From the NCBI GenBank assembly GCA_963731035.1, contig CAVSUY010000022.1, forward strand, positions 4,887 through 68,886: a stretch of 64,000 nucleotides of DNA, written 5' to 3'. The position numbers and the translations under genes are program-made. The notes under the pieces were generated by a model, which saw nothing but the letters and a program-made list of their open reading frames with translations, did no database searches and had not been told where the DNA came from. Below are positions 5,662 to 47,327 of this stretch, one piece after another. Source of the DNA: an uncultured Gammaproteobacteria bacterium (lineage in GTDB: Bacteria > Pseudomonadota > Gammaproteobacteria > Arenicellales > JAANXG01). Position 1 is the stretch's first letter; each line of letters begins with the position of its first letter.

Positions 5662-5681
5662 CGGTATACTGTCCCCAGAAC
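5662..5681. repeat. REP family 1 unit
   Basis: cggtatactgtccccagaac. Confidence 0.7.
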
Positions 5682-5685
5682 TACT

Positions 5686-6022: not shown

Positions 6023-6032
6023 GGGAGGAGGG

Positions 6033-11329: not shown

Positions 11330-11435
11330 CGCTACGCGCTCACTTCATTGACTCGGGGTCGGGCCGACGTCCAAGGATACCGATGAGTCACGCTTGAGGG
11401 CGACCGAGCGGAGCGGCAGCGAAGGGAGCGAGCGG

Positions 11436-11795: not shown

Positions 11796-11970
11796 AGCTC
11801 TCAGGAGACCCAGCAGTGAATTGGGCAGAGTTCGTAGATCCCGTAATAGGCAGAGTTCCTGACTCGGGTGCTAGCGAGATTCCGAGCGGGTCCGGTCGCG
11901 GCGCGGGTGCTGCGGGTCGTGGTTCGTGATCGAATGGAGAGGTCCTTGCGGTGTCAAGCTGTCCTCTGTG

Positions 11971-13098
11971 TTACGGGGCGATGAAATGTTTGCTGAGCTT
12001 CAGGCCTTGGCTTTGGTAGCTGGATTTCAGGTCCTGGCCGTAGACTTTGTGTGGGGGTTCGGCCAGGGGTTCGTAGATTAGGCGGCCTACTATTTGGCCG
12101 TGTTCTATTACGAAGGGGACTTCGAAGGATCTGACTTCGAGGACGGCTCTGGAGCCTTCGCCGCCGGCGGCGGCGTCGCCGAAGCCGGGGTCGAAGAAGC
12201 CGGCGTAGTGGACTCGGAATTCGCCGACGAGGGTGTCGTAGGCGATCATTTCGGCGGCGTAGTGGGTGGGGACGCGGACGGCTTCCTTGCTGGCGAGGAT
12301 GTAGAACTCGCCGGGGTCGAGGATGAGGCTGGGGCCGTTGCTGCGGTGGATGGGCTCCCAGAAGTCCTCGGCCTGGTAGTGGTTCTTCTTGTCCATGTCG
12401 ATGAGGCCGGCGTGGGACTTGGCGCGGTAGCCGATGAGGCCGGTATGCGGGTCGCCGGCGACGTCGACGGTGATGGGGACGCCGTTCTTGATGTCTTCCT
12501 GGGTCAGCTCGGCGTCGACGATCTTGAGCTCTTCCTGCAGTCGGATGTGCTCGGCGTCGGAGCGGGTGGCGATGCCGCGGCGCACGCGGAGCTGGTTGAG
12601 GCGCGAGCCGGCGCGGACCAGCACGCTGAAGGTGCGCGGGGCGATCTCGGCGTACAGGGGGCCGGCGTAGCCGGGCTTGACCTGGTCGAACTCGACGCCA
12701 TGGTCGGTGATGAGCCGGGTGAAGACGTCGAGGCGGCCGGTGGAGCTTTTCGGGTTGCCGATGGCGCTGTGGTCCGGGGGCAGGTTGACCGATTCCATGA
12801 GGGGCACGATGTAGACGCAGTCGCGCTCCAGCACGGCGCCGTTGGTGAGGTCGAACTCGTGCATGGTGAGGGCCTTGATCCGGTCCTGCACGGTGTTGTG
12901 CTTGCCCGGGAGGAAGCTGGCGCGGACGCGGTAGGCTTTGTGGCCGAGGCGCAGGTCCAGGCTGGCGGGTTGGATCTGGTCGTCGGCGATGGGGTCGGTG
13001 GCTTTGAGGGCGCCGGTGTGGATCAGGGCGACGATGGATTGGGACGGGAGGACGCCTTTGGGTTGGGGGTCCATTTTGGGGGCTGGGTGGTCCGTCAT
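11971..13098 (-). CDS. dcd: 2'-deoxycytidine 5'-triphosphate deaminase (long DCD family)
   Basis: 375 aa. IQPASLDLRLG... and the overall length match the long proteobacterial dCTP deaminase family. Several Arg/Pro-rich shadow ORFs overlap it. Confidence 0.8.
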   Translation of the reverse strand: MTDHPAPKMDPQPKGVLPSQSIVALIHTGALKATDPIADDQIQPASLDLRLGHKAYRVRASFLPGKHNTVQDRIKALTMHEFDLTNGAVLERDCVYIVPLMESVNLPPDHSAIGNPKSSTGRLDVFTRLITDHGVEFDQVKPGYAGPLYAEIAPRTFSVLVRAGSRLNQLRVRRGIATRSDAEHIRLQEELKIVDAELTQEDIKNGVPITVDVAGDPHTGLIGYRAKSHAGLIDMDKKNHYQAEDFWEPIHRSNGPSLILDPGEFYILASKEAVRVPTHYAAEMIAYDTLVGEFRVHYAGFFDPGFGDAAAGGEGSRAVLEVRSFEVPFVIEHGQIVGRLIYEPLAEPPHKVYGQDLKSSYQSQGLKLSKHFIAP

Positions 13099-22683: not shown

Positions 22684-23116
22684 GCTCGGACATGTGGTTT
22701 TTTACGTACGCGATCTTCAGCGATCCGTGGATTTTTATCGCGACGCCGTCGGCCTGACGTTCAAGGGCAAAATCTTCGATGGACGTGCCGGCATGCTGAC
22801 CGGCGGCCGCACCCATCACGAGCTGCTGTTGATCGAAGTGGATGATGCGCCCGGTCCGATGCAGGGCCGCCGCATCGGCCTGTATCACACCGGCTGGAAG
22901 ATCGGCGAGTCGCTGGACGAGCTGCGCGCCAAGAAAGCGCAGCTCGAGAAGCTCGGCTACGGCATCGACGGCCAGTCCGACCACACCGTGAGCCAGAGCT
23001 TGTACCTGCGCGATCCCGACGGCAACGAGGTGGAGCTGTTCGTGGATGATCCAAGCTATGACTGGAAGAATCGCGAGGAGTGGATGGAGGCGCCGGTGTT
23101 GCCGCTGGAGTTGTGA
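22676..23116 (+). CDS. VOC/glyoxalase family protein
   Basis: LGHVVFYVRDLQRSVDFYRDAVGL. Overlaps the previous gene by 8 nt. Confidence 0.85.
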   Translation: MPELGHVVFYVRDLQRSVDFYRDAVGLTFKGKIFDGRAGMLTGGRTHHELLLIEVDDAPGPMQGRRIGLYHTGWKIGESLDELRAKKAQLEKLGYGIDGQSDHTVSQSLYLRDPDGNEVELFVDDPSYDWKNREEWMEAPVLPLEL

Positions 23117-23118
23117 GG

Positions 23119-23199
23119 AATCGCGGCTGAAGCCGCTCCTACAATCCGGGGTTCACCGTGGTGCCGATCCCGGGATCGCAGGAGCGGCTTCAGCCGCTA
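23119..23199. repeat. REPIN of REP family 2
   Basis: aatcgcggctgaagccgctcctac ... gcaggagcggcttcagccgcta in inverted orientation. Confidence 0.85.
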
Positions 23200-23218
23200 T
23201 TGCCGAGGAACACGACAT

Positions 23219-23830: not shown

Positions 23831-23862
23831 CACGGCGCGGGTATTGACCACGGTTCACGCCG

Positions 23863-23986
23863 GTCGCGGCTGCAGGCCGCTCCTGTAACCCGAAGGTCAC
23901 CGTGGCACCAATTACGGGGTTGCAGGAGCGGCTTTAGCCACGATGATCCGGGAACCGGTACCGATCGCGACTGAAGTCGCTCCTAC
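23863..23986. repeat. cluster of three REP family 2 units
   Basis: gtcgcggctgcaggccgctcctgt, gcaggagcggctttagccacgat, gatcgcgactgaagtcgctcctac. Confidence 0.85.
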
Positions 23987-26960: not shown

Positions 26961-27037
26961 GGTCGAAGCCGCTCCTGCAATCCCGGGCCAATCGCGGTGC
27001 TGATCCCTGGATCGTAGGAGCGGCTTTAGCCGCGATT
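26961..27037. repeat. REPIN of REP family 2
   Basis: ggtcgaagccgctcctgc ... gtaggagcggctttagccgcgatt. Confidence 0.85.
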
Positions 27038-27042
27038 CCTCC

Positions 27043-28329: not shown

Positions 28330-29356
28330 GCGGTCGAGCCGCCGCGTTGCCTATCCGCCTCCGGACCACCTCCAGGGAACGTTCAACGCCTGCCGCGAGA
28401 ATCCCGGAGACCGCCAGGATCAAGGGCAGCGAAGACAACACCAGCCCTGCCCCGTGCCGGCTGACTCCGATCCCCAGGGCGTGGTACAGATAGAAGACGG
28501 TCAGGCCCGCCAGAAAGTGCACCAGGTATATGGGGTAACTCAGATCACCGAGGCGCTTATCGAAGCGCCGGGTGAGCCATGAGGAAGGCTTTATCTCGGA
28601 CAGGCCCGCTACCGCCAGGCTGCACAGCACGTAGTTCGAGTAGAAGAATATTCCCGTTGACCGACCGGTCAGCCAGCCGCCCAGCCAGTTCGCAAGTATG
28701 ATCCCGACCAACACCAATGGAACCCAGGCTCCCGTCAAGTCGAGAGCTCGCCTGAAGTATTGCGGGATCGAAGCACCGAAATGAAAGATCAAGGCGCCGG
28801 TGGCGAAAGGGAGAGACGCGGAAGGGATTGCGAAGTACTGGTAAGGCCAGCCGAACTGAGCCGTCACAGCGACGACATGGTAGGCGACGCTTGCGGCAAA
28901 CCATACGATCACTGACTTTTTCGTCTTCGACAACCCGAGACCGATCAGGATATAGAAGCACAGCTCGACGGTCAGCGCCCAGGCCGGGGGTATCAAACGG
29001 GGAGCCGCCCTGGCCGGGAAGAAGATCAGGATATTCCGAGCGAGCTCGTCGACACTACCGGGGAGATAGAGAGTCGGGCGATAAGCGGTGGCAAACTGCT
29101 CTCCCACCAGCGCGATCAATAAGGCGGAAAGGCCGATGGACAGCCAATAGATCGGATAGATCCGGAGAAACCTGTTCAGTAGATAGCGAGCCGCGCCGGC
29201 CGGGGTGTGACCGTAGTCCCGGTGCATGATGCAACTCATGAGATAGCCGCTCAGCACGTAGAATCCGAACACGGCGTACGCGCCCATCCGTGGCGCCCCG
29301 CCAAGGTGCTGGGCGACCACCATCAACGCCAACGCGGTGCGGAACGTGCCGAACAT
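28262..29356 (-). CDS. acyltransferase family 3 (membrane O-acyltransferase)
   Basis: FRTALALMVVAQHLGG...FGFYVLSGYL with multiple TM segments. Last gene of the 32939-28262 operon. Confidence 0.85.
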   Translation of the reverse strand: MFGTFRTALALMVVAQHLGGAPRMGAYAVFGFYVLSGYLMSCIMHRDYGHTPAGAARYLLNRFLRIYPIYWLSIGLSALLIALVGEQFATAYRPTLYLPGSVDELARNILIFFPARAAPRLIPPAWALTVELCFYILIGLGLSKTKKSVIVWFAASVAYHVVAVTAQFGWPYQYFAIPSASLPFATGALIFHFGASIPQYFRRALDLTGAWVPLVLVGIILANWLGGWLTGRSTGIFFYSNYVLCSLAVAGLSEIKPSSWLTRRFDKRLGDLSYPIYLVHFLAGLTVFYLYHALGIGVSRHGAGLVLSSLPLILAVSGILAAGVERSLEVVRRRIGNAAARPLSSCRRQARPSILRRAASHRTP

Positions 29357-29380
29357 TACACGGCGGACCGTCGGGTCGCG

Positions 29381-30682
29381 CTAGCCGAGAATATCGAAGG
29401 TCCCTCCATCCGACAGGATGGTGCCTTCGCCGATTTCGTAGCGCAGCCCCGTATTCAGGATCCGTATATCCATGGTGCCGGCACAGCCCCTCCCGATCAC
29501 GAGCTTGTTGTGGCTGCCGCGAACCCAGATCCGCGATCCCTTGCGAAATACGACGTCGTCGCCGATCTCGACCCGGTTGTCGTGGCCCACGAGCTCGAGA
29601 CGGGCGCCCGACTCTATGCGGACATTCCGCCCGATGCTCACGACGTTCGCGAATCCCCTGGCCTTGACCTCCAGCGAGCCCGCCACTTTGCCGGATTGGC
29701 ATGTGACGCGATTGTCCTCGGAGCTCGAGTCCATGGTCACGCCCTCGACGCATGCAGCCGTAGCGGGATCTGCGGCATCCTCGCTCTCGCCCGCTCTGAG
29801 AATGCGCGGCCAGAGTCCGGAGCCGGGCGAGAATCTGTCCAGAAAACTCCGCGCATCTTCCTTGAGCGCCGGCACCACCTCGCGCAGAGCTTCGCCATCC
29901 CAGTCTACCGGTGTATCGGCAAACGGACGCCGCAGCCCGAGTTCCTTCAGAAGGGGATCAATGTGGTCGGGAGGTATCCTATCCAGCGCCTGGGCGATCT
30001 CCGGGAACTTCCCGCGTTTTCGGAAGTGCCGCATGCGCTGCGTATCGTAGAGCTTCTCCCTCCCTTCGTTCAGGCGGATGTCACATTCGGGTATTTCAAC
30101 ATCCGGATCCACGCCCAGAAAATCGAAACATCCCCGCAATACCATTCTTGGGTCCGCGGCGAGATGCTCGAGAAACACGACGTGTATCCGCCCCTCGTCC
30201 ATGTGGTCGAGATAGTTGCGGATCCGCTTCCAGTAGAAAGCATTCTCGAGAATCGACTCGTCTGTACGGGTGGCACAACCCAGAGAGTATGGCGCCAATA
30301 CGCCGTAGAGATGGCCGCTGTGATGAATCTCCTTGTACGCAGCCTCCACCCGGTCGATGGGATCGCGGGCAATGAAGATCAGCTTCATTCCTGGATAGTG
30401 ATGCAGCATCCGCTCCCGGGAGACGCGTTCGAATTCAAAATCCGTGTAGCAGGTGCTGCATTCCCCGAGCAACACGCCGGGCCGGGCATCCTTGAATCTT
30501 TCCGCGTATCCCGACCAATGGCTTAGGTAGTCCTCTTTGGGAAAGAAACAGAATTCCTTGAGACCCTCCCCCGTCGGCATGAAGAGCTGCGGATGACGCG
30601 AGAGCAGCTCGGTCAGGGTGGTAGTTCCACACTTGCTGAAACCCGGAACGATGAAATCGACGTGAATCGGAGGGCGCGTCAT
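29381..30682 (-). CDS. sulfotransferase (PAPS-dependent) fused to a C-terminal beta-helix/hexapeptide-like domain
   Basis: 5'-PSB motif VPGFSKCGTTTL and 3'-PB motif IARDPIDRVEAAY. C-terminus has repetitive V/I-G-x-x patterns. Confidence 0.85.
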   Translation of the reverse strand: MTRPPIHVDFIVPGFSKCGTTTLTELLSRHPQLFMPTGEGLKEFCFFPKEDYLSHWSGYAERFKDARPGVLLGECSTCYTDFEFERVSRERMLHHYPGMKLIFIARDPIDRVEAAYKEIHHSGHLYGVLAPYSLGCATRTDESILENAFYWKRIRNYLDHMDEGRIHVVFLEHLAADPRMVLRGCFDFLGVDPDVEIPECDIRLNEGREKLYDTQRMRHFRKRGKFPEIAQALDRIPPDHIDPLLKELGLRRPFADTPVDWDGEALREVVPALKEDARSFLDRFSPGSGLWPRILRAGESEDAADPATAACVEGVTMDSSSEDNRVTCQSGKVAGSLEVKARGFANVVSIGRNVRIESGARLELVGHDNRVEIGDDVVFRKGSRIWVRGSHNKLVIGRGCAGTMDIRILNTGLRYEIGEGTILSDGGTFDILG

Positions 30683-30691
30683 CTCACGAGC

Positions 30692-31363
30692 TCACTGGTC
30701 ACGGTATTCGAACCGGTATCGAAAGGTCTCGATGTCATCAGCGTACATCTCGGCGACCCGGTTGCGCGTCTCATCCGTATAGTAATCGCTGTAGTGCCTG
30801 GCGTTGCCGCGCCGGTTGCTGCGGGAGATCAGGCGCTCGTAGACGTCATCCATACCCAGGGAGTACAAGTACGGTCTCAAGGTAAGCTGGAGATCTTCCA
30901 GACGCAGAATTCTATCCACCATCAGTTCGCCGTCCCCGTCGCCCGCGTAGTGCCGTGTGTCGTAGGCGCCGTACTTTCGCCAGCGCACCGAGTCTTCACC
31001 GCCTCCCCCGGGGCCCTCGGTGCGCACCGTGCGCAGCCAGGCGGCGAAGCTCCCGGGGGAGTCATCTGCTTCGCCGCGCTCCTCCTCCTCGAGTACGTGT
31101 CGGTACAGCGAGACCAGCCTTTCCCAGGGATTTCGCGTGAGCATGAACCGGGTGTAGCTGTCGAAATCCAGACCTCGGCTGACGAACACCTCGCGCACCT
31201 CGATGGGACGCATGTGAGGATAGTACGGCAAGTCCTCAGTCCTCGTCAGATAATCCTTCGCGGGAAACTCGTCACTGTAGGGATTCAGGAACTGGCGTAC
31301 GCTGGAGGAACCGGTCTTGGGGTTGGCGAAGAAGATGAATCTGTAGCGGTGCGAAACGCGCAC
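30692..31363 (-). CDS. sulfotransferase family protein (type 2-like)
   Basis: FIFFANPKTGSSSV and MLTRNPWERLVSLY. Confidence 0.8.
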   Translation of the reverse strand: MRVSHRYRFIFFANPKTGSSSVRQFLNPYSDEFPAKDYLTRTEDLPYYPHMRPIEVREVFVSRGLDFDSYTRFMLTRNPWERLVSLYRHVLEEEERGEADDSPGSFAAWLRTVRTEGPGGGGEDSVRWRKYGAYDTRHYAGDGDGELMVDRILRLEDLQLTLRPYLYSLGMDDVYERLISRSNRRGNARHYSDYYTDETRNRVAEMYADDIETFRYRFEYRDQ

Positions 31364-31374
31364 GATGTTTCTCT

Positions 31375-32579
31375 CTAGGCCGCTTCGCGGGGCGGCCTCC
31401 CCGTGGTGGCCTCCAGAATCAAGGCGCTGCAGGTCTCACTCCCTTCGGCATCCCCCAGCGCCCGCAGCAGACACATCAGGTCGCCGAGCGCTACATCCCA
31501 TCGGAACCTCTCGCGAATGCGCGCCGAGGCTGCCGCCGCCGAGGACTTGTACCGGTCCCACTCGCTCCACATCTGGTGCAGCGCCGCCTCGAGCGCGCTC
31601 TCGTCGACCTTGTAGCCGCAATCCGACGGGTAGCCGAGCGGATCCCGCGATACCTCGCCTCGGTCCATCGGAAGATCCAGGGAGTTGTCATCGTCGAGGT
31701 ATTCCCCCAGCGCCGTATGCCGCGGAGCAATGACCGGGGTTGCGCAGGCGATTGACTGCAGTGGAATCAGGCCGAAACCCTCGGACTTGCTGGGGTGCAC
31801 GGTGCAGTGCGCGTTGCGGTAGCAGGCGGCGAGGCTTTCCACCTCGCGGTGCTCGGGCATGTCGAGATGGACCAGCTCTTCCGTCCGGTGCTCTTCGATG
31901 AGCTTCGGCAGATTGCCCGGCTCGTCCACTCGCAGTTGCAGCCGGACGCCGCGCGTGCCGCGAAACACATTCGCGAAGCATCGGATCAGCTCCGCGGCCC
32001 CCTTGCGGTCGGCGAAGCGGCTCGAAAACACGTTGAGAAACGTGAACGGACCGTCGGCCGGCGGCCCTTCCCCCGGCCTGAACGCCGGCTCCAGGCCGTG
32101 CCCCACAACCATGATGGGCGTCGTGACGCCGGAATCAATGAACGCGCGCCGGCAGAACTCGGACGGAACGATGACGAGGTCCATGGTCTGCAGGCGCTCC
32201 ACCCAGGCCGCCGGGATTGTCTCGCTCTCGCAGACGAAACCCGCAATCCGGACCCGGTGGCCGTCGAAGAAATCCGGGATATAACCCGGAAAACCATAGA
32301 AAAATCCCACGGGCGCATGACTATCCAGGCCAAGCCCGCTTCGAGCTCGCCGCGGAACAACGGCGGACCATAGTAGTTGCAGATTCCCGCGCCGGGGATG
32401 TGCTTCAGGACATGGGTGGCGATCTCGCCGGCGACACTCGCGATGGAACCGTATCCCTTCAGCGGTCCGTAGAATTGCAGGGGCAGACCGGAGCGCCTCG
32501 GCGCGGAGAAATCGAGAGGGGACGGAAGCTCAAACTTCGTTTCGACGGAAGCGACTACGGTTCCCATTGTGGTATTCAA
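31375..32579 (-). pseudogene. GT4 glycosyltransferase with one frameshift near 32335
   Basis: N-terminal frame reads MNTTMGT...GYGSIASVAGE...ELEAG. C-terminal frame reads LGLDSHAPVGFFYGFPGY...HPSKSEGFGLIPLQSIACATPVIAP. Span is 1205 nt (3n+2). Confidence 0.75.
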
Positions 32580-32606
32580 GCATTGACCGCACCGGCCACA
32601 CTACCC

Positions 32607-32939
32607 TCAGCAGACGTTCGTCGCGGAGAGACTGACGTTGGTGATGGTATGGCTCAGGGGGCCGGTGAGGTAGGTACTGTTGCAGTAGGGCGTGGAGCCG
32701 ACGTAGGTGAAGTGCAGGTCAACGCGCATGGCACCAGCGCTGGTCTGGGTACAGGTAACCGATACGTTGAATGCCCCGCAGGTCGGGTGCACGTATACGA
32801 ATCTCGTAGCATTGACTGAGGTGCCAACACCCGTGAGCACACCGTCCGCCGGCTTACTCACCGCGTTGAAAGTGATGATTCCATTGCTGGAACCGGGAGT
32901 GTGACAGTAGGTCACCGAGACGTTGACACTGATGGACAT
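32607..32939 (-). CDS. small Cys/Ser/Thr/Val-rich protein, first gene of the modification operon
   Basis: 110 aa from MSISVNVSVTYCHTPG. 6 Cys and 5 N-x-S/T sequons (NVS x3, NAT, NST). No signal peptide seen. Lies 27 nt upstream of the GT4 gene. Confidence 0.55.
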   Translation of the reverse strand: MSISVNVSVTYCHTPGSSNGIITFNAVSKPADGVLTGVGTSVNATRFVYVHPTCGAFNVSVTCTQTSAGAMRVDLHFTYVGSTPYCNSTYLTGPLSHTITNVSLSATNVC

Positions 32940-33299
32940 GTATGTCGCTCTTCTTTGTTCTATACTCGGTTCATCGGGGGCCGAATCACGTTGCACTTTT
33001 TCGCGAGCGACCAGGCGAGAATCCGGACGTCGGCGGAATTCGCAGGATCTGTCGCGAATTATATCCGGTAACGCTCCGACCGCAAATCAGGGATGGCGAT
33101 TGCTCCCAATCCTTGTCGGCGCGCGGGAGCAAAGCGCTATTCGACGGATGTGGACCACCAGTCAACTCTGATGGGCCGCTGGGCTCGGTTCGCCGGAAGC
33201 GGCCGGGGGGCCGGCATTCCAGTTGCGGGCGATCCTCGTCTCTGCTGTCTGAACGGCACTTCACTAGCTGATAACTGGCTTCTGCTAGCAGCAGGCACA

Positions 33300-36250
33300 G
33301 ACTGATGCCATCGCGGTATAGATCACGACTGTGGGGTCGCTCATCGCGTACAAGGGCTGATACTCCAGCCTGAAGAAAAGCTCTCTGGTGAGCGAAAGCC
33401 GGTATGTGCCCAGATACGGCTGTACGATCGCGAGCTGATCCACAGCATCCTTTCCGTGGACTTGGCGATGGGACTAGCACGTCTAGGTTGCAGGAGGCGA
33501 TGAGAACCGCTAAGGCGCACACGGCACCACTAGGCTCAATGGATGTGCTCTGGGAAAAGGCATTGCATCTTGTCCCAAGACAACCAATGAAGCGTAGACA
33601 GAACTACTGCAGCTGTACTCGGAGGGGTGATCCTCCGCAATACTGTCTTTGCTCGCCAGTACGAACTAGATGTCGACTAGATCGCTAGCAGGACTACCGT
33701 GAAAAGCGCGTCACTGCGAAAGCTGTTTATGACGGTTCTCGCAGCTAGGAGCTGAACCACTGTCGCGAGAATCAGAACTGGGACTAGGAAACGCTGGCAA
33801 AGCAGGACGACTACGGGAAACAGAAGGTAGAACTGCATCTCCAGTGACAGCGACTAGTGCCGAACAGGATGTTGCGGTACTCACTGTCGCTATACAACAG
33901 CTCAAAGGTATAGTTGGCGAAGTTGAGCAGGCGCTGGCACCGACGATCAGGTTGCTCTTGACTGTTCTCAACGCTCCGGTTTCATTGAACTGCGCCTAGC
34001 ACGAGACCTGCGATACCGTCTACGCTGCGCATGATGCGCTAGATGCGGCGGATCTAGAAGGCTGTGGCGTGTGGTAGAACTGTCTCTTGCTCGATGCGGT
34101 TTGAAGCTGCGAGAGCAAGTGCGTGCGATCTCGAAACTCGAGTGACTAAGAAAAGAGTGACGCTACTGGCGCTTGAACTAGTCGCTGAAAAACTACAGAG
34201 ACTCGGTCTTCTAGTGGAACTGTTTGAGCTTCAGTTGATAGATTATACTAGTACTATCGCGACGGTTAGGAGCACTTCGATGTCGTCAATCTGGGAAGTT
34301 GCGCTGCTTTTTTCAGAGGCGTACATGTCGGTTAGAGCGGCATGGATTGATCTCTTTGGTTGTGAACTATCTAAGCGAGTTCTCTGTATTATATATTCGA
34401 ACTGTGGAGCTAGCTGAGTTACTAGGGGTCGTTTATGTCGGATTATTGATCTTTTGATGAACGACAACGTTTCTTTGTCTATTTGCTTCGGAAAGCTCTG
34501 TGGTAGCGATGGTCTCGGCTCGGGCAGTCGAGACTGTGTGGTGTATTTATCTGAAAGCGCTGCGAGGACTGAGAAACACAGAGGTGGCATCGGATACAGA
34601 GTCGCGTAACGATGATGACTAGCGAGTGCTACGTCATCGCTTTCTCATCTCTCTCGGCTGGCGCGCTCGGTTAGCGCGCTGCTGCTGTGATTTTCACCGG
34701 CTACGACGTCTACGATGATTCGTACAAGACTGACACTTCGGGACGCTGATCGGATAGCTGAACGACTATTCGTTGATCGTGTGTGCTCTGAGCTTACAGC
34801 GCTTACTGTCTGATATTAACTGACTAAAGCGATAGCGAGATCGCTGCAATTATATCTCTCTGTTAGAGCGCTACGACACTGTTAGAAAGAACTATGACTG
34901 CTATAGAGAAATCGAGCTTGCTTCAGTGCTGTATACGTGGACAGCTACTATCTTTGCTTCTCTCGGTAAAGCTCGTAGAGCTATTTCTCAGCGCTGGGGT
35001 TTCGAATCTCACTGAAATCGGCGACAGTGTTTGCTGCGCGTGCTGGACTTCTGCTGATCGGGTGAGTGCTTTAGCTTTTGAGAAGTTTTGTACTGCTAGA
35101 AGATTGAAGAACTTAGAAGAATGCTGACAGAGCTATGATTCTGCTGCTAAAGCGAATTGATATGCATCAATTTTTCTATGTATTACTAAATATAAGAGCA
35201 ATTAAGTTAGATTAGATTGCTCTGCGACTTAGTCAGAGCTAAGAAACGATCTATTCTGAGAAACGATAGCAATTTCAATAAAGTGATATATGTGATAGAA
35301 ATCTTAGATCAGCTACATTTCTCTGCGATTTCGGAGTACTTTGCGAGCGACTCTATTGAACTACTGCAATTGCTGATAGAGCGCGTAGCGCTGATTCTGT
35401 CGATTAGTACTATGCTAGAGATCTACGCTGCGCTGAGAACAAACTCGCTATCTTAGTGTCTGTTGACTTGTGAGCTCTACTCGCATCTTCTGAGTAACAG
35501 CTGAATGCTGAGTATTAATTCGAAGTGCTGAGCGCTTTCTGCTTAACGCACCGCTTCTACGACGACGCTACTCTGTTCTTCTAGACCGACGCTCTCGATC
35601 TCATACTGCTGCGCATGTCTGAGAGCTAGCGAAAATAAAACGTTTATATGCTAAGTGCTATTAATAGCTGTAGATCTGAACTCAACTTCTTATTGCAACT
35701 AGCTAGCGAACACTACTTTCTTCTTCCTAGACTACTCTGCGATGTGTCTGCTCAAACAATCGCGGATTTCTTGATCCTAGCGTAGTGCTCATCGCGCTGA
35801 GCTGAGACGCTCATACAGAACTGATCTCTGCTGAAAATAAGTACAAATTAAACTCTTAGCGCTACACAGATCTACGCTCTTCGAATCTCCCACTCTCTAC
35901 TGAGACAGCTTGTGCGACTATAACTGAGAGAGCTTCGCAGAGTTTTCTAAAAATATTACAAAACTACGCTAACGACACGGACACCGATTACTCTCTGTGT
36001 CCGCTGCACGCGCTAACTGTTAGCGCGCTACTGAGAAACTCACACCGTAGCTACGCACTCTAGAGCTAGCTCTATCCGTTACTGCGCTATCTTGCTCATA
36101 GCTGCGACGCTGAGAAGACCGCTCTCTATTGCACTGAGCTGAGCTGACCCGAATACAGCTATACTTCGATCTCAAAGCTTCCTGCCGATATTGAACGCAC
36201 GATCGCTATTCGAACTGCCAAACTCACGGCCCGACTCAACAGTGAACCGA
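33300..36250. other. ORF-free, compositionally graded tract (GC minimum ~32% near 35.2 kb; CTAG-rich; GG/CC-poor)
   Basis: No ORF >117 aa in six frames, and all three stop codons occur in all frames. Dinucleotide and tetranucleotide hand counts are given in the findings. Confidence 0.8.
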
Positions 36251-36606
36251 CAGATCGCCTGAATCTCTCCGCTGTGCTACGCCCGCCGCCCGCACTCCGA
36301 GCAGCTCCGACGAGCTCGTGCCGCTGTTCGCACGGAATTCGACGATATCCCGCGAGGAATGAGCACCTGCCGCAGAACGACTGACGCGCGCTCGAGAGAC
36401 ACGAGAGCCATCCCCACTCCGCGTCGCGCACGGCGGTGCGCACGCATGCGTCGCACCCGCGAACGATCCCGCCCGCTCGCGCCCTGCGCAGAGAACACGA
36501 CCGGCCGAACCGGTACGGCCTGGTGGTGGAGAGAAACGACGCGGACAGCCGATCGCTACCACCGGTAAGGCGGAAGGGGAGCTGACACGGAGCTGAGCGC
36601 ACCTGC

Positions 36607-37228
36607 ATGAGATATCGCTTCCCGGAGGCGCGGCGCCCCCGAGCCCGACGACGAGAGCCGGCGACCACGGAGCTGGAGCTCCGGGCGACGACACCCACGA
36701 TCCGAATCCGCCGGACGGCCGCAGAACTGCGTCGACCCGACACTGCTACTGCCTGGCTCTCACACACCCGGACGCCACCTACTGCACCCGACCACACGAC
36801 ACCAACCTCGGTGTCGGCCACTCCCGCACCCCTTGCGACGGTGGCACGGCAGAAATGCCGCGTCGCGCTCACCAACAGCTCCATCCGGACGCCGCGATCG
36901 CCGCCCGCCCTGGCGAGCCACTACTGCGACAACGCGACCAGCGGCGAAGGCCAGTGCCGCCGCTGATGGAGTACATGTCCGCCGGCGCACCGGCAGTGGC
37001 TCCCGATCACACGGGAATGATGGACTACGTGAACCGGCACAACGCGCCATCGCGGAGGCCGACCGCGAGCCCTGCGGATGGCCCCAGGATGGCCGCGGCG
37101 CGCACCGCACCCCGCCGGCGCCCAACAAGGAGTCCCTGGTGCGCCAGCTCCGGAGAAGCTACGACGTCGCGGCCAACTCTCCCTCCTTGTACGCGGAGAT
37201 GGCCGGGCGAGCCCGGTCGACCTGCTGA
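36607..37228 (+). pseudogene. GT4 glycosyltransferase fossil (C-terminal half recognisable, several frame changes)
   Basis: ...RVALTNSSIRTPRSPPALASHYCDNATSGEGQCRR / LMEYMSAGAPAVAPDHTGMMDYV / PNKESLVRQLRRSYDVAANSPSLYAEMAGRAR lie in three frames. They align to VHLDMPEH..LAACYRNA..PSKSEGFGLIPLQSIACATPVIAPRHTALGEYL of the gene at 31375-32579. Confidence 0.55.
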
Positions 37229-37319
37229 AGCACTGCTCGCCGGCGGCTGTCTCCACAAGCTCCAGCAACCGACGACGCGCACGGCGAGCGGATGTCTCCA
37301 CCCCGTGAGGCGGAGGAAC

Positions 37320-37901
37320 ATGGTCGAAATTCGGACACGAACGCCAAGCCAAACGCGCCTACCTGGTTCTGGGAGCGGAGTCCAGCGGCACGCACATGGT
37401 GACCGAGCTGTTGATCAGCGCGGGCTGCATTGGCCATGCCGGTGATCACATCGATTGGCAGATCGACCAGCGGGAGCTGCCGAGGACGGATTTCGGCTCT
37501 GGGAGTCCGTCGTGCCCACCGCCAGCAGCCGTGGGATCCGAGCTGCCCCATGACCAGACTCCCATCGTCTGGCGCTAGAGCTCCCCCACGGTGGCGATCG
37601 GGTGGACATCTCCGGGTTGATACAGTTGCTCGAGGAGCGGGGCTATTCGGTCACGACTGTGGTGATCACCCGCTACCGCCACGCCACGATCCAGTCGCAG
37701 CTCAAATGGCGTCATGCCGCCGATGCCACGGCGGCCGCCGCCGCGATCGATCGTGCCACCAGGCATATACCCGCTCATCTCGACAGATGCGCCGCGGATT
37801 TCACCCGGGTGACATACGAGATTCTGGTGCGCGATCCCGGCGCTCGCGAGACCTTGCTGTCGTCGCTGCGCCTCGTGGTGCCTAGCGGTTGGCGCCTGTG
37901 A
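37320..37901 (+). pseudogene. P-loop (sulfotransferase/kinase-like) small protein with two compensating frameshifts (near 37350 and 37575)
   Basis: MVEIRTRTPSQ / KRAYLVLGAESSGTHMVTELLISAGC...TPIVWR / ELPHGGDRVDISGLIQLLEERGYSVTTVVITRYRHATIQSQ. Confidence 0.6.
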
Positions 37902-38068
37902 GAGAAGACAACACAAAATGGGACGCAACGGACGCGGGCGGGCCGGTGGAGGGTTTTCCGGCCGCCGAAGCGCAGATACCGCTCGACGGATTTCCCGAAT
38001 GGAGCTTCGCCTGCCAGCACGCCTTGAGGCGGAACTATCTCGAGTGCGCTCACTAGGGCTGTAAGCGC

Positions 38069-38816
38069 ATGAAGGAGTCCACGGTCATGCTGTGCGGGTT
38101 GGCGCGAGACGTTGAAAGATATCTTGACCCGGTCATTGCCCGCGTTGAGCGATTCGGCCGCTGCTTTGCGAACTACAGGGTGGCGGTATATGAGAACGAT
38201 TCACGCGATTCGACGGCCGCCCGGCTTCAGCGGTGGAGAGAGGAAAACGAACGCGTAGTGGTTCTCAATGAAACCCGGGGCGTCTCTGCGTGGCCAGTTG
38301 GCACTTCCCCTGAGCGCATGGGGCACATGGCGCAATGCAGGAATCGGTATGGAGCTCGCCGGCGATACCTGCCCGGCGGCCGACTTCGTCGTCGTGTTGG
38401 ACATGGACCTGCCGCAGGGATTCAGCTACGAGGGAATCGCCAACACGTTCGGCGATTCGGAGTGGGACATCGTCGGGTCCAACGGTATACTGTTCGCGCC
38501 GGCCGGGGGGATGCCGCTGGGCAGGCGCGACTCTTCGATATGGGCGTTCAGGACAGACGAGTATCCGGACGGGTCGGCATTGGAGATGGTGAACGCGCTC
38601 CGTTTCGAGCGAGGAGAGCCTCTGGTCCCGGTGCGCTCGTGCTTCGGCGGCCTGTGTGTTTACCGCGCGCCGGCTTTCTTCTGCGGCGAACGGTACGATG
38701 GCGGGGACTGTGAGCACGTCGTGTTCCATGAAGCTCTGAGGCGCCGCGGGTATGATCGCCAATTCCTGAATCCGAGCCAGATCGTACTTTACACGGGACC
38801 AGACAAAGCGGGATGA
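38069..38816 (+). pseudogene. GT-A-fold-like transferase, frameshifted near 38348
   Basis: MKESTVMLCGLARDVERYL...VAVYENDSRDST...AQCRNRY, then MELAGDTCPAADFVVVLDMDL...CFGGLCVYR. Span is 748 nt (3n+1). Family call is inference. Confidence 0.6.
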
Positions 38817-39571
38817 ATGCTCATCCACAACAGATTCATGAACTCAGCTCGCCGCGCTACGGCTCCCACTGCTGCGAACCTCGCTCGATTGTCACCCGCA
38901 GATCGAATGCCATACCGAGGTATTCAATCCGGACTTCACCGTGTTCGCCCCGTATGATCGCGCCACTCCCGCGGTAAAGATCTCGATAATCACATCTTCG
39001 GCACACGGCCGTCCGAAATCCAATCGGTGGGCTTCTTACTGCATAGAAGCGCGCCAACTTCGGCGCCTGGCAGGACCTGTGGCCCCGGCTGGAGAAGGAT
39101 GATGCCCTGCGCATCGTCAGCCTGCGGCGCGAGAACCTGCTGCGCCGTTACCTGTCTTATCTCACCATGAAAGAGCCGCGCGAGCGCAAGCTCCATCCAC
39201 GGACACTGGATCCCGTGGAGTTGGAGGCGGAGTTCGAGGCGCGCCACAGTGAAATCACATCGTTCGACGAACGCTTCGCGGGCCATCCGCTGCTGGTCGT
39301 GACCTACGAGCAGCTGTGCCACGACCACGCCAACACCCTCGAGGCTGTGCAGCACTTCCTGTCAGTGCCGGTGACGGACCTGGCTCCGCACACCAACCGC
39401 AATCCGCGCCTGGATCTCAGGTCGGCGATTTCGAACTACGACGCCCTCCGCGCCCACTTCGAGCACACGCCCTGGGCGGGATTCTTTGACGACAGACCGG
39501 AGCCCCCGGTTGACCAGATCAAGTTCGGTGGATACACGGGACGCATCACCATTGCTTCCTCTGGCGACTGA
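38813..39571 (+). pseudogene. sulfotransferase with at least 2 frame changes and an in-frame TAG
   Basis: MNAHPQQIHELSSPRYGS / LLRTSLDCHPQIECHTEVFNPDF / ...SVGFLLH / NFGAWQDLWPRLEKDDALRIVSLRRENLLRRYLS...LLVVTYEQL...FLSV. ATGA overlap with the previous gene. Confidence 0.6.
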
Positions 39572-39603
39572 GACCGGCCTCCGGGGACGGACGCCGGAGA
39601 ATC

Positions 39604-40068
39604 TTGGAGGCCGCGTCCCCGGGAATATCCCCTATGAATGATCCTGAGCCGGGGTCTCTTTATGTGCCGTATCTAACCGACAACTTCTGGGAAGAAACCG
39701 CACTCGACCGCTTCCGCTACGATACGTTCGTGGAAACAGGGAGTTACAGAGGGTTCGTGCTTGAGTTCATGAAAACCCGATTCAGGTTCATTGACAGCAT
39801 CGAGCTTTCGAATAGATGGTATGAGTTTTGCCGGGAAAAGTTCAGGAATGATGCGCATATGTATTTGCATCAGTTTGAGTACAACTGGACCGGTATCACA
39901 CTGGAGAGGGTACTGGGTCTGATGAAGCCGGGTTATGGGTGCTTGGAGAACGCACAATCCCGGTATACAGTGACACCTCGCGAGGACCAGTTGATCTTCT
40001 ATCCTCTTGGGGACCGGGCGTTCTTCGAGCGACGAGGAGCGGGGTGTAACGGCTGGGGAGGCTTCTAG
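39604..40068 (+). CDS. hypothetical protein with methyltransferase-like N-terminal motif, possibly degraded
   Basis: DTFVETGSYRGFVLEFM...IDSIELS resembles class I/FkbM-type MTases. Downstream motifs not found. Confidence 0.35.
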   Translation: MEAASPGISPMNDPEPGSLYVPYLTDNFWEETALDRFRYDTFVETGSYRGFVLEFMKTRFRFIDSIELSNRWYEFCREKFRNDAHMYLHQFEYNWTGITLERVLGLMKPGYGCLENAQSRYTVTPREDQLIFYPLGDRAFFERRGAGCNGWGGF

Positions 40069-40283
40069 GCGCCGATCGAGAAGGCCTGGCTGGTGGTGCC
40101 CCTGAGCCCGTGGGTGGCGATGACGGAGCTTCTCGCATGAGCCGGCAGCGTAACGGATTCGATGATGGGCCTCACCCAGCGCGTCGGTACCGTCGTACCC
40201 GCGAACAGCGAAGCGGCGAGCAGAGTCCGGCGAACGTGCTTGTGATCGAAAGATCCATCGCCCTTTTTAGACTTTTCTTTCAT
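40065..40283 (-). CDS. small secreted peptide precursor sharing the leader of the 4111-4596 protein
   Basis: 72 aa. HVRRTLLAASLFAGTTVPTRWVRPIIESVTLPAHA then a 22-aa tail. The motif W-x-[KR]-P-[VI]-I-[DE]-S-V-x-L-P-A-H-A is shared. Confidence 0.5.
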   Translation of the reverse strand: MKEKSKKGDGSFDHKHVRRTLLAASLFAGTTVPTRWVRPIIESVTLPAHARSSVIATHGLRGTTSQAFSIGA

Positions 40284-40413
40284 AACTGAAACCTTCTTCG
40301 GCAGGCCGAGACAACCCGATAAGCAAAGTATACAGCTTTTCGCCGGCAAGTCGTCGCGGCGGCCAATCTGCGGCCTGGGCCTTCGTTCGTTCATCCCGCC
40401 GGTCCGGCTGAGG

Positions 40414-40884
40414 TTGCACCGGCCGGCGGGATGGAACGGGGCTCAGCTCAACGAATACGCCCACTCGGCGCCGCTCGCGCGGCAGATCCCCAGCGCCCGG
40501 CTGGTGGAGCTGCCGGGTCCTGATCACTTGTTGTTCGCCGGTGACAACAGCGACGAGATCACCCGGGCCATCGTGGATTTTATCGAGGCTCCGGCGAAAC
40601 GCGAGAAGACCAATCGCGTGCTCGCGACCATTGTTCTGATCCAGTACGGAGACGGCGTGGGCGACCGTGTGTCCGACGCCGTGGCGGCATCTGTCAGTGA
40701 CGAGCTCCGGCGTTTTCGTGCCACCCACGTCGCGGCCCAGGACGGCGCCGGGATCGCGGCGACCTTCGACGGTCCCGCCAGGGCTCTCGAATGCGCGCGC
40801 TCATTGTCGCTGCTTCTCTCTGCGGCGGGCATCCATCACCGCATCGGGGTACACGCCGGCGAGGTTACCCGCGATCGTCTGTGA
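40414..40884 (+). pseudogene. fragment of an alpha/beta-hydrolase + class III nucleotidyl cyclase fusion
   Basis: ARLVELPGPDHLLFAGDNSDEITRAIVDFI is a hydrolase C-terminus. RVLATIVL...GIHHRIGVHAGEVTRD is a degenerate, truncated cyclase. Ends at a REP. Confidence 0.6.
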
Positions 40885-40886
40885 GC

Positions 40887-40910
40887 AATCGCGGCTGAAG
40901 CCGCTCCTAC
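40887..40910. repeat. REP family 2 unit
   Basis: aatcgcggctgaagccgctcctac. Confidence 0.85.
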
Positions 40911-40937
40911 CATCCGTGGATCAGCCCTGTGGCAGCA

Positions 40938-45342: not shown

Positions 45343-46152
45343 CTACCAGATTACCTCGTCGGCCATCAGTGCCATGGCGCGGATCGGCTCATAGTCTTCA
45401 TCCTGAACCGGAGCCATTTTGAGCAAGCCATGCTCTTCCAGAATGCTCCGTCCCGGTTCGCCTTCGTGCATTCGCCAGAGAGCCTCACGAATTGCCTGAC
45501 GCAGTTCCGGCGGCACATCTTTATGGACCACCCACGGCGGTATGGGGCTCGGTCCCAGAACGTCAATGACTCGCAGCTGGGTCTTGAGCCGGGGCTGAAG
45601 GTCCATTTCGATTTCGAGGACGGTACTGTCAATCGCGCTTGCGTCAACGGCCCCGTCCAGGACCATCTCAAGGGCCCGGAGGTGGGAACCGGCTTCGATA
45701 ACACGGCCAAAGTAACCTTTGCTCTCGCCCAGGGCCGCCAGGTGGTACCGGGTAATATTGTATCCCGACTGGGAGCCGGTTTCGTTATAAGCCCACGACG
45801 CACCGCGTAAGTCGGTGAAGCAGCCATATTCCCTGTCACTGCGCACGACGACATCGGAGAAATAGACCGGTCGCTGCTGATAACGCGGGTGCTGCATGAC
45901 CGGCGCGGCCACCAGTTCGATGCAGGGAAACTTCCGGTCCACCCTACGCACATACGGCAATCCGCAAATCCAACCTAAGTGGACCTGTCCCGCGTCCAAC
46001 ATCCGTCCCCGCTCTTTCCACGGAATATCGTTGACGAACTCCGTCTCTACGCCCAAGTGATCACCAAGATAGCCGGTAACTGCCCGGCACATGGGAGCCG
46101 CGTTGTCCGACTGGATCGAGATGACCTTGAGAGTTCCGGGGACACAATACAT
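45343..46152 (-). CDS. PhnD-like substrate-binding-fold protein (no signal peptide)
   Basis: SQSGYNITRYHLA and an overall PhnD-like pattern. The annotated ATG lies inside a REP unit, so the true start may be internal. Confidence 0.7.
   Translation of the reverse strand: MYCVPGTLKVISIQSDNAAPMCRAVTGYLGDHLGVETEFVNDIPWKERGRMLDAGQVHLGWICGLPYVRRVDRKFPCIELVAAPVMQHPRYQQRPVYFSDVVVRSDREYGCFTDLRGASWAYNETGSQSGYNITRYHLAALGESKGYFGRVIEAGSHLRALEMVLDGAVDASAIDSTVLEIEMDLQPRLKTQLRVIDVLGPSPIPPWVVHKDVPPELRQAIREALWRMHEGEPGRSILEEHGLLKMAPVQDEDYEPIRAMALMADEVIW
46133..46150. repeat. REP family 1 unit flanking the RAYT (inverted relative to 46913-46930)
   Basis: gttccggggacacaatac. Confidence 0.8.
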
Positions 46153-46154
46153 AA

Positions 46155-46814
46155 CTAGTCAGCCCTTTTCGGGCCAGGCTTCTGGCGCCGCAGGCGACGA
46201 CCCGTTAGAGATTCGAGGCGCCGAAGGAACGAATCGGAGCCCAACGGGCGGCCGGTACGTTCATGGAGCTTAAGCACTTCGGTATCTTGCGGGCTCGGAT
46301 TTTCCGTCAAGTATTCGGACCAATCGTCGACGCGATTTAGCATCGGGGCCACGCTTACCAATTCGTCGTCCCTGCCGTCCAAATGTGCCCGGGCACTGGA
46401 CCATTTCCAGCTTCCCGGACGAGTACACAGGCCGGCTCGAACCGGGTTCAGCTCAATGTAACGGACGGCGGCTATCAAGTGAGACTCATCCATCGGGAAC
46501 GAAGCAAAGCGGCCCTGCCACAGATACCCCCTCCATCCTTCACGAAAGTTGACATAGCGTGTGTATCTCCTGTGTGCTTCAGCCAGTGATCGATGCAGAC
46601 CGTCAATACTGCGGGGCAATAGCACGAGATGCACATGATTGGGCATCAGACAGTAGGCCCATACCGCAACATTGGCCTTCTTACAGTGGCGGCTGATCAA
46701 GAGCCTGTAGTGACGATAGTCCCTGTCGGAAAAAAAGACTCGTTGCCGGCGATTGCCGCGTTGCGTGATGTGGTGTGGGATATCAGGTACCACGACCCGT
46801 GCCATCCTGGCCAT
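46155..46814 (-). mobile_element. REP-associated tyrosine transposase (RAYT, IS200/Y1 family)
   Basis: IPHHITQRGNRRQRVF...YCLMPNHVHLVL...YIELNPVRAGL. Flanked by inverted REP units. Confidence 0.85.
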
Positions 46815-46912
46815 ATTGCTCCTTTCTAGTCAGCCCCATTGAGGGACCACAAGTCTAACCCATGCGGTGGCCTAGATCGAGTTCCTAGCCTCTCTCGAGC
46901 GGGAGGAATTGA

Positions 46913-46945
46913 GTATTGTGTCCCCCGAATACCGAATACAATACT
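46913..46945. repeat. REP family 1 unit with hairpin partner
   Basis: GTATTGTGTCCCCCGAAT followed by gaATACAATACT, which is complementary to AGTATTGT. Confidence 0.8.
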
Positions 46946-47327
46946 ATTCGCTGCCCAACAGCTCGATCAACGCGCGGAACAGGTCGGTTTCAGTGAGGAG
47001 GCCGACGACGCGGCCGCCTTTGAGCACTGGCAGTCCGCCGATGCGGTTTGAGACCATCAGCCTGGCGGCGGACGCCAGTGGGTCATCGGGGGAAACGGTT
47101 ATCACCGGGGAATGCATGACCTCATAGACCTCGACCTTCGCTTCCCGGAAATGGCGCGCGGCGAGTTGAAGATCCCGGTGCGTCAGTATGCCGACCAACT
47201 TCCCTTCCGGGTCCACCACCGGCAGATGATGCAGGTTCTTGTCGTGCATGATGTCGAAGGCTTCCCGGTAGTCGGTGTCGGTCTGAATGGTGATAGGGGC
47301 CTCGGACATGTAGCTACTGACTTTCAT
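46944..47327 (-). CDS. CBS-pair domain protein
   Basis: 127 aa with two CBS-like repeats (HHLPVVDPEGKLVGILT; IGGLPVLKGGRVVGLLT). Confidence 0.85.
   Translation of the reverse strand: MKVSSYMSEAPITIQTDTDYREAFDIMHDKNLHHLPVVDPEGKLVGILTHRDLQLAARHFREAKVEVYEVMHSPVITVSPDDPLASAARLMVSNRIGGLPVLKGGRVVGLLTETDLFRALIELLGSE

Follow-up and report, generated by a model that had tools for sequence, protein, structure and literature searches.

The 64,000-nt window analysed here, from the contig of an uncultured gammaproteobacterium, raises the question of how a stretch near its middle came to lose both its genes and its normal base composition. The initial annotation had described 33,300–36,250 as an ORF-free tract with a GC dip to ~32% and almost no CC or GG, and each of these observations holds. 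ORFs inside the tract reach 117 aa at most, and windowed GC falls from ~0.6 to 0.32 at 35,100–35,299 before reaching ~0.70 by 36,400. In 1-kb windows, the observed/expected ratio of CC is 0.07 at 34,001–35,000 (three CC), and at 35,001–36,000 the ratios are 0.15 for CC and 0.17 for GG (seven of each), against 0.72–1.09 for CC and 0.70–1.07 for GG in the other windows. A single CC lies within 34,017–35,550, and only four GG within 35,062–36,333. The depletion differs between the strands, with CC lost mainly on the left (32.8–36.15 kb) and GG mainly on the right (34–36.4 kb), so that the GC skew runs at +0.2 and then at −0.24. The adjoining segment at 36.15–37.45 kb is GC-rich and T-poor, with an AT skew of up to +0.43. 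CTAG is indeed in excess, with 30 of the 56 copies in the window falling within 33,000–36,300, but the other 26, eight of them at 10–12 kb, are more than the handful first estimated. A k-mer of the altered tract, GATTGCTCTGCGACTTAGTCAGAGCTAAGAAACGATC, serves as an example. As had been anticipated from the raw letters, there is no RNA or tandem-period signature: an Rfam search of the whole window gave no matches, a tRNA/tmRNA scan found none, and a tandem-repeat scan returned nothing meaningful.

The tract lies within a strain-variable island of 12.5 kb (28,388–40,866) that carries acyltransferase, sulfotransferase and glycosyltransferase genes. The island is missing from L005 (JGI) and L006 (a 627-kb contig at ENA), where position 40,867 is joined directly to ~28,387–28,393. 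It is present and intact in L001/L009, L002/L010, L003, L011, L004, L007, L008, L012 and L013, and the intact version was found in six other public datasets. At the position of the tract, the intact copies encode an acyltransferase, a 559-aa protein, two glycosyltransferase-like proteins and a sulfotransferase. L001, L002 and L003 are 99.93–99.99% identical to one another, with intact ORFs that have Pfam matches. Two independent contigs, L007 (NCBI MAG GCA_049282175.1) and L008 (SRR27973165), cover the left half of the tract and are 99.94% identical to L002 there, whereas the same half matches the window at only 94.9% (L007) and 90.9% (L008).

Aligned to these intact copies, the window differs between 32,334 and ~39,400 by ~650 substitutions, 186 deleted bases and one insertion. 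The 3.7 kb of the island to the left (28,584–32,333) contain no difference at all, and only two occur to the right of 39,500. The comparison with related loci, which the initial annotation had proposed, thus recovers both the ancestral intact genes and the mutation spectrum. It shows that 32.3–39.4 kb of the window is the derived state of a gene block that other datasets carry intact and that is broken here, and the tract is a heavily corrupted copy of four or five ordinary sugar-modification genes. The earlier limits of 33,300–36,250 were too narrow, since the T-poor segment at 36.15–37.45 kb and the changes up to ~39.4 kb belong to the same event.

This alignment bears directly on the reading of the tract as a natural non-coding element, whether foreign AT-rich DNA, a structured RNA gene or a pseudogene decayed by drift. 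That reading draws only on raw appearance (no ORFs, low GC and odd k-mers) and is highly improbable, as the bases of the tract can be aligned one by one with those of intact protein genes whose GC is normal. Each of its versions, first raised from composition, falls in turn. The ancestral GC of 0.53–0.70 refutes a foreign AT-rich origin. A large untranslated RNA locus is refuted by homologues that are protein genes, with Rfam and tRNA/tmRNA scans empty and repeat signals lacking. A very old gene fossil would have flanks as diverged as the decayed part, but the neighbouring 3.7 kb of the island have zero differences against a local density of up to 30 events per 100 bp inside the tract; because the adjacent DNA is 100% identical to the intact copies, there was no time for drift.

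The changes fall into successive blocks, each with its own spectrum. The outermost change on the left is a single-base deletion at 32,334, which frameshifts a GT4 glycosyltransferase gene on the minus strand (31,375–32,567; 397 aa when intact, a 311-aa ORF in the window). Block 1 (32,804–34,000, plus strand) consists of near-pure CC>CT changes at ~4 events per 100 bp; it covers a 110-aa gene (32,607–32,939, minus strand) and most of an Acyl_transf_3 gene remnant (33,162–34,326, minus strand). Across blocks 2–3 (34,000–36,150), CC>CT is saturated and is joined by CC>CA and CA>CT, then by GG>AG and G>T, at 18–26 events per 100 bp. The GC minimum falls here, as does the remnant of the 559-aa hypothetical gene (34,457–36,101, plus strand), and S>W changes outnumber W>S by 379 to 1. 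The last dense CC>CT change is at 36,145. In block 4 (36,150–36,800), CC>CT ends abruptly, G>C and T>C appear, and deletions become abundant (~30 events per 100 bp, with ~13% of bases deleted, the local maximum); the block takes in the 5′ part of a 439-aa GT4 gene remnant (36,092–37,308, plus strand). Block 5 (36,800–37,450) is T-only, with 17 T>C changes, 13 deleted T and three T>A. At 36,800–37,299, T is altered at 34 of 92 sites and G, C and A by one change each, which leaves the segment poor in T and raises its GC above the ancestral level. Block 6 (37,450–39,400) holds sparse mixed changes (~2.4 per 100 bp) that break a 502-aa CAP59-like gene (37,320–38,816, plus strand) and a 254-aa sulfotransferase gene (38,813–39,571, plus strand).

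The origin of the tract from GC-rich DNA by transitions in CC/GG context, proposed from the letters, is borne out by the intact copies, mainly as CC>CT and GG>AG. These transitions are only part of the spectrum: C>T and G>A make up only ~55% of 837 events, and the remainder includes 71 C>A, 47 G>T, 45 A>T and 44 T>C. Likewise, the suggestion that CTAG arose from CCAG and CTGG accounts for 15 and 2 of 33 copies, respectively, while six came from CAAG. Triplets and longer runs resolve into alternating sequence. CCC became CTC 27 times and CTT once, GGG became GAG, CCCCC became CTATC and CCCCCCC became CTACACA. The altered output avoids CC and GG by whatever route. Deletions show no enrichment at homopolymers (2.1% against 1.4%, and 7.0% against 7.5%). 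The initial annotation had noticed neither the deletions (186 bases) nor the C>A, G>T and A>T classes, the T-only block or the full extent of the alteration.

Read from left to right, the spectrum passes from C only to C and A, then C and G, then everything together with deletions, and finally T only. No single mutagen gives such a block-wise order. Several candidates for a sole cause were set aside: UV, as TC and TT are untouched; cisplatin-type GpG/ApG adducts, which have the wrong partner base; O6-alkylguanine, which would strike the 3′ G; guanine oxidation, for which G>T is expected; and alkylation of ssDNA at C and A, for which a CC context is not expected. A diversity-generating retroelement (DGR), which would alter adenines of a variable repeat close to an intact template repeat and a reverse transcriptase, was also rejected. 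Only block 5 is specific for a single base (T, or A on the minus strand), single-base deletions are common there, and a second copy of the region is absent from the window.

In block 1, at 33–34 kb, the base preceding the altered C is itself C in 45 of 46 C>T changes, and the ~217 C that follow A, G or T are unchanged apart from one in TCG. None of ~300 G in the block became A, and C and A account for 65 events against six at G or T. At the edge of the block, CCC triplets are altered before CC doublets, and event density is graded over ~1.5 kb. A real and very recent hypermutation in one cell lineage could leave such a pattern. A break or gap in the island would have exposed ssDNA, of the plus strand on the left and of the minus strand on the right, and a 5′-CC deaminase acting with error-prone bypass would have converted nearly every target and destroyed five non-essential genes. 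This account is possible but doubtful. The strict motif, the untouched G of block 1 and the graded left edge are in its favour, as are a single 5′C-to-3′G switch from C/A events on the left to G/T events on the right, flanks that are intact as a single burst predicts, and the accessory nature of the affected genes. In yeast, mutation clusters formed by bidirectional resection show the same order, C changes followed by G changes.

Other features of the tract fit this account poorly. A ssDNA deaminase would leave a fixed short motif at the mutated C, which is what 33–34 kb displays, but also essentially only C>T/G>A changes without indels; ~45% of the events here are neither, and they include the deleted bases and the T-only block. 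Strand coordination, with at most one C-to-G switch at the break, gives a mixed picture. The left is C-only and the right is dominated by G and T, in the 5′C-to-3′G order expected, yet both strands are saturated over ~2 kb (34–36.15 kb), unlike the outcome of one break. The tract is similar to APOBEC-type kataegis (strand-coordinated clusters that arise in yeast and cancer from ssDNA at resected double-strand breaks) and to APOBEC3G hypermutation of retroviral DNA in its C-after-C motif, its C-left and G-right order, its gradient and its intact flanks. It differs in that C>T/G>A (plus C>G) changes make up those clusters, which lack indels and do not saturate both strands over 2 kb. APOBEC3G prefers 5′-CC, and such clusters leave CCC as CCT or CTT rather than CTC, whereas the tract has CTC and almost never CTT or CCT. 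To our knowledge, neither a comparable cluster density nor a kataegis-type cluster has been found in bacteria.

Among bacterial enzymes that cause C>T changes in surviving cells, the known deaminase toxins DddA and SsdA offer a partial likeness, but they have not been described as 5′-CC-specific: DddA acts on dsDNA and prefers 5′-TC, and SsdA acts on ssDNA with no strong context dependence. Their mutations are scattered genome-wide, not gathered in a saturated patch of 6 kb. Fungal RIP is similar in its saturation with C>T/G>A, in turning GC-rich genes into AT-rich, stop-riddled DNA, and in its sharp limits. RIP, however, is a fungal process that requires a duplication and targets CpA on both strands, while the tract is single-copy in the window, has a CC context and contains frequent indels. 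The fullest form of the hypermutation account would make the tract a natural bacterial counterpart of kataegis in an Arenicellales-like gammaproteobacterium, in which one 5′-CC ssDNA burst, a C-to-G strand switch and lesion bypass saturated ~4 kb and wrecked five accessory genes. We regard this specific scenario as unlikely, and somewhat more so than hypermutation in general. If the sequence is real, the tract would be without precedent in bacterial genomes as a dense, motif-specific and strand-switching mutation cluster, and a lead to a new CC-specific DNA-editing activity. The cause would have to be a so far unknown ssDNA deaminase or lesion process with CC specificity that acts on a bacterial chromosome, possibly on island DNA as it arrives.

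Both local hypermutation and a basecalling or assembly artefact had been offered at the outset, and both remain, with the artefact favoured. Most likely, the tract reflects a fault of sequencing or assembly rather than real localized hypermutation; judged from sequence comparison, the alteration is probably an artefact of consensus building or basecalling, confined to one deposited contig, rather than the organism's DNA. The altered version occurs in a single contig, which also weighs against hypermutation, and six datasets agree on the intact sequence. A single contig, of 620,104 bp, is on record for the window-specific proteins P0009, P0010, P0014, P0026 and P0030. No exact match to a 37-mer from the tract turned up among JGI metagenome contigs, and exact look-ups of the tract ORFs at 36,159–36,884 and 32,986–33,522 (both minus strand) returned no displayable contig. 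A JGI scan with the intact 397-aa glycosyltransferase found no relatives, so that no partly altered intermediates were recovered there, and a genome-contig scan with the adjacent glycosyltransferase likewise found none. The ancestral state is known from near-identical copies (L001, L002 and L003), and the near-absence of differences on either side leaves no time for natural divergence. Over the rest of the contig, the differences from sister contigs are ordinary SNPs only, with one gap in 24 kb.

The location of the tract also points to an artefact. Identity between the window and the intact copies stops exactly at both ends of the island: the Lhr-side flanks of the intact copies differ from the window at ~10–27 sites per 100 bp, and the LysR-side flanks are similarly diverged. 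Sequence lineage thus switches exactly at the island ends, and the island, set in one lineage's backbone in the window, is identical to the one carried by a second lineage with clearly diverged flanks. In two sister samples the island forms separate 14-kb 'contig_N' pieces. A strain-variable island with a lineage switch at its very ends is an assembly trouble spot.

From contig names and sizes only, the source appears to be a Flye-type long-read assembly, in which the island may be a minority 'bubble' branch that few reads supported. The central part of the island could stem from very few poor-signal reads, one strand at a time, and/or from neural consensus calling at almost no depth. Calling of this kind would split the flat signal of G/C runs into alternating calls (CC>CT, CCC>CTC, GG>AG and GGG>GAG) and drop single bases while almost never adding any, and the error classes would switch block by block with each change of supporting read, strand or processing chunk. 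Reported nanopore read errors have these traits: single-base deletions exceed insertions, G/C runs are troublesome, and G>A and A>G are the leading substitutions. The tract agrees with them in its 186 deleted bases against one inserted, in C>T/G>A and A>G (seen as T>C) as leading classes, in strand specificity and in the weakness of its G/C runs, and an output that avoids CC and GG whatever the route, along with a block-wise spectrum unlike that of any single mutagen, also favours an artefact. Against it stands a density of up to 30% of positions, far above ordinary consensus errors, whose reported rates are orders of magnitude lower. Reported long-read consensus errors are tied to methylation motifs or long homopolymers, whereas the deletions here are not homopolymer-biased, and C>A, G>T and A>T changes are frequent in the tract. 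The changes also look too clean, as block 1 is almost without other noise; the left-C, right-G order matches what bidirectional resection at a break predicts; and the remainder of the contig is of high quality.

If the artefact reading is correct, a public MAG contig (NCBI, ENA) carries ~7 kb of false sequence, five or six intact genes appear as pseudogenes, and spurious ORFs enter protein databases, as with the 178-aa P0009. Patches of this kind will continue to be picked up by composition-based scans, and a comparison against sister assemblies quickly reveals them.

A related and improbable explanation is that the DNA is intact but heavily modified or damaged, so that a long-read basecaller applied to native DNA misreads, one strand at a time, modified C as T and modified A as G or as a gap. 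Nanopore errors induced by modification show strand specificity and are mostly C2T/G2A, and G2A and A2G are the leading substitution classes. No known system, however, targets every CC and then every T in a graded fashion over a few kilobases, at normal depth the errors should be outvoted by reads from the other strand, and the transversions and the 13% deletion rate are left unexplained. Two assemblies of the same project do carry errors in the same island centre, which speaks for modification as well as for the favoured artefact reading. Relative to the agreeing L002 and L003, a small private cluster in the sister contig L001, at 33,953–35,694, falls into the same error classes, with four T>C changes, one deleted T and one GG>AG. 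A leak of the altered states of the window into a mixed consensus was considered as the source of these private variants and rejected, as only one of the seven sites agrees.

Intact counterparts of the AT-rich, ORF-free tract were recovered through exact matches to the protein of a nearby sulfotransferase gene (29,381–30,682, minus strand). The same strain-variable glycan-modification island of 12.5 kb (28,388–40,866), with its genes intact, is carried by the metagenome contigs L001 (ENA ERZ25039549), L002 (ENA ERZ25039500), L003 (Logan ERR11523667) and L004, and the first three share pairwise identities of 99.93–99.99%. Additional intact copies lie on L007, from an Arenicellales bacterium (NCBI MAG GCA_049282175.1), and on the Logan contigs L008, L012 and L013 (SRR27973165 and SRR28041847). 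When the intact genes are projected on the window and named by their Pfam domains, the minus strand holds a 110-aa gene (32,607–32,939) and an Acyl_transf_3 acyltransferase of 396 aa (33,162–34,326), and the plus strand a 559-aa protein with no Pfam match (34,457–36,101), a GT4-type glycosyltransferase of 439 aa (36,092–37,308), a CAP59-like protein of 502 aa (37,320–38,816) and a sulfotransferase of 254 aa (38,813–39,571). The ancestral GC content over the tract is an ordinary 0.53–0.70. The initial annotation had entertained foreign AT-rich DNA, an untranslated RNA locus and an old gene fossil; the first two are refuted because the ancestor consists of protein genes of ordinary GC content, with no Rfam match, and the third by 3.7 kb of adjacent island without a single difference from the intact copies. 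We regard the tract as probably not a real genomic feature but a technical product: accessory genes of an ordinary kind, corrupted in one publicly deposited MAG contig. Within the same island, a 397-aa glycosyltransferase (31,375–32,567, minus strand) hits Pfam PF20706 (E = 4e-16; 'Family 4 glycosyltransferase in conflict systems') and adjoins two sulfotransferases and two acyltransferases; the island could serve either to modify the cell surface or in defence.

The unusual composition first read from the sequence is borne out by counting. GC content falls from ~0.6 to a minimum of 0.32 at 35,100–35,299 and reaches ~0.70 by 36,400, and the longest ORF within the tract is at most 117 aa. Counted in windows of 1 kb, CC occurs at 0.07 of expectation (3 CC) at 34,001–35,000, and CC and GG at 0.15 and 0.17 of expectation at 35,001–36,000, compared with 0.72–1.09 for CC and 0.70–1.07 for GG in all remaining windows. 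Only one CC occurs at 34,017–35,550 and only four GG at 35,062–36,333. This depletion is strand-asymmetric, a feature overlooked initially: the left side loses CC and the right side GG, with the GC skew running from +0.2 to −0.24. Scans for Rfam families, tRNAs and tandem repeats returned no family, tRNA or notable repeat. The reported CTAG excess is real, with 30 of the window's 56 copies at 33,000–36,300, but the 26 copies outside are more than the handful claimed; those in the tract derive mostly from CCAG (15), CAAG (6) and CCGG (3). Secondary CTAG clusters (8 at 10,001–12,000 and 4 at 46,001–47,000) lie in DNA of GC 0.52–0.56 with normal CC and GG ratios and are unrelated to the tract signature. 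The tract proposed at 33,300–36,250 stands, but its right limit was set too short, as an abnormal GC-rich, T-poor segment with an AT skew of up to +0.43 continues to ~37,450.

Compared with L001, the window shows zero differences at 28,584–32,333 and near-identity again after 39,500, and between these limits 665 substitutions, 187 missing bases and 2 extra bases. Against the majority of L001–L003, taken as the ancestor, the counts are 650 substitutions, 186 deleted bases and 1 insertion, and their nature changes from block to block. At 32,804–34,000 the changes on the plus strand are almost purely CC>CT (45 of the 46 C>T changes come after a C, and none of ~300 G became A). CC>CT is saturated at 34,000–36,150, joined by CC>CA, CA>CT or loss of A, and rising GG>AG, with 379 G/C-to-A/T changes versus 1 in the reverse direction; the last dense CC>CT lies at 36,145. 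From 36,150 to 36,800 the density reaches ~30 events per 100 bp, deletions remove 13% of bases, and G>C and T>C appear. T alone is altered at 36,800–37,450 (T>C 17, T deleted 13, T>A 3); within 36,800–37,299, T is changed at 34 of 92 sites and G, C and A once each. Sparse mixed changes follow from 37,450 to ~39,400. Runs are broken rather than converted: CCC yields CTC 27 times and CTT once, GGG yields GAG, CCCCC becomes CTATC and CCCCCCC becomes CTACACA. CCC triplets are altered ahead of CC doublets at the left edge, and deletions show no concentration in homopolymers. At 39,701 and 40,380, two isolated G>C differences set the window apart from every intact copy, each at a G preceded by G, in a right island part that is otherwise identical; they may be true SNPs or mark the farthest edge of this corruption.

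With its strict 5′-CC motif, graded density, unaltered flanks and C-left, G-right order, the tract resembles the single-stranded DNA clusters that follow bidirectional resection of a break, in which C changes lie to the left and G changes to the right. Real localized hypermutation is an unlikely alternative, since ~45% of events are neither C>T nor G>A (among them the 186 deleted bases, many transversions and the T-only block), saturation extends to both strands over 2 kb, and CCC yields CTC rather than CTT. Furthermore, the known bacterial DNA deaminase toxins favour TC or have no strong context dependence. Should the sequence be real after all, for which there is a small residual chance, it would represent a bacterial hypermutation cluster without precedent.

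A technical origin is supported by the confinement of the altered version to one contig, against six datasets that concur in the intact sequence, by flanks with zero divergence, and by the ratio of 186 deleted bases to 1 insertion. The base specificity shifts by block such that no single mutagen fits, and CC and GG are avoided by any route, which is more suggestive of a decoder than of an enzyme. In published nanopore profiles, G>A and A>G head the substitutions, single-base indels occur with insertions rarest, G/C homopolymers cause trouble and C2T/G2A errors are strand-specific. If the strand of the reads alternated, such errors would show as the tract's C>T, G>A and T>C classes, nanopore being the putative platform here. 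The centre of a low-coverage branch may rest on one or two reads of poor quality, each strand in turn, and may then have been processed by a neural polisher with hardly any depth; both would break the flat signal of G/C runs into alternating calls and drop bases. This technical reading is weakened by an extreme local error density of up to 30%, by the remarkably clean first block (32,804–34,000) and by deletions lacking homopolymer bias. Strand-specific C>T and A>G classes would also be expected from misreading a patch of DNA that carried heavy modification or damage. This explanation is very improbable, and no known modification system has such targets.

The assembly setting also favours a technical origin, as the tract sits in the middle of an assembly bubble and a sister assembly of the same project contains the same error classes. 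In the latter, L001, positions 4,935–6,717 (window 33,953–35,694) carry four private T>C changes, one deleted T and one GG>AG (window orientation) at sites where L002 and L003 agree with each other, leaving the 559-aa gene in two pieces of 352 and 195 aa. This cluster and the window's tract share change classes and the island centre, and differ in the sites affected. The tract-specific proteins P0009, P0010, P0014, P0026 and P0030 are recorded solely on the window's own contig (620,104 bp; NCBI and ENA), and a 37-mer from the tract had no match in JGI metagenome contigs. Protein matches with identities of at least 90% bear the name Arenicellales bacterium. L003 and L011, both Logan contigs of run ERR11523667, break with an overlap of ~28 bp at 36,953–36,980, inside the T-only block, which could reflect a graph branch or a coverage gap.

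The island is missing from L005 (JGI) and from L006 (ENA, 627 kb, same accession series), where the Lhr helicase side is joined straight to the LysR side, with junctions at ~28,379–28,393 and 40,864–40,867. In two sister samples it forms separate 14-kb contigs named 'contig_N', suggestive of Flye naming. Outside the tract, the island is 100% identical to the intact copies, which belong to another lineage, while the LysR and Lhr flanks of those copies differ from the window by ~10–27 differences per 100 bp (a figure that applies to the Lhr side at least), such that the lineage switches exactly at both island ends. Because vertical inheritance would give the island the divergence of its flanks, either its transfer was very recent or we are dealing with a strain-chimeric contig, a collapsed consensus that may combine one lineage's backbone with another's island reads. 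No integrase or direct repeats were seen at the island. Elsewhere, the window differs from L005 and L006 by ordinary SNPs and one gap in 24 kb, indicating that the assembly is generally accurate. Dense SNP clusters relative to L006 (~20 differences in 200 bp at 21,055–21,256 and ~12 in 70 bp at 23,849–23,918, in surroundings 99.9% identical) look like short recombination tracts.

A palindromic element of ~44 bp (GCGGCTGAAGCCGC...) lies at the right island junction (40,880–40,925) and at two intergenic sites (23,112–23,203 and 26,999–27,041), one of which carries it as an inverted pair. A Y1_Tnp gene, of the REP-associated tyrosine transposase (RAYT) type, projects from L005 to ~46.15–46.8 kb, ~5 kb away. 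These palindromes and the Y1_Tnp gene look like REP elements with their RAYT.
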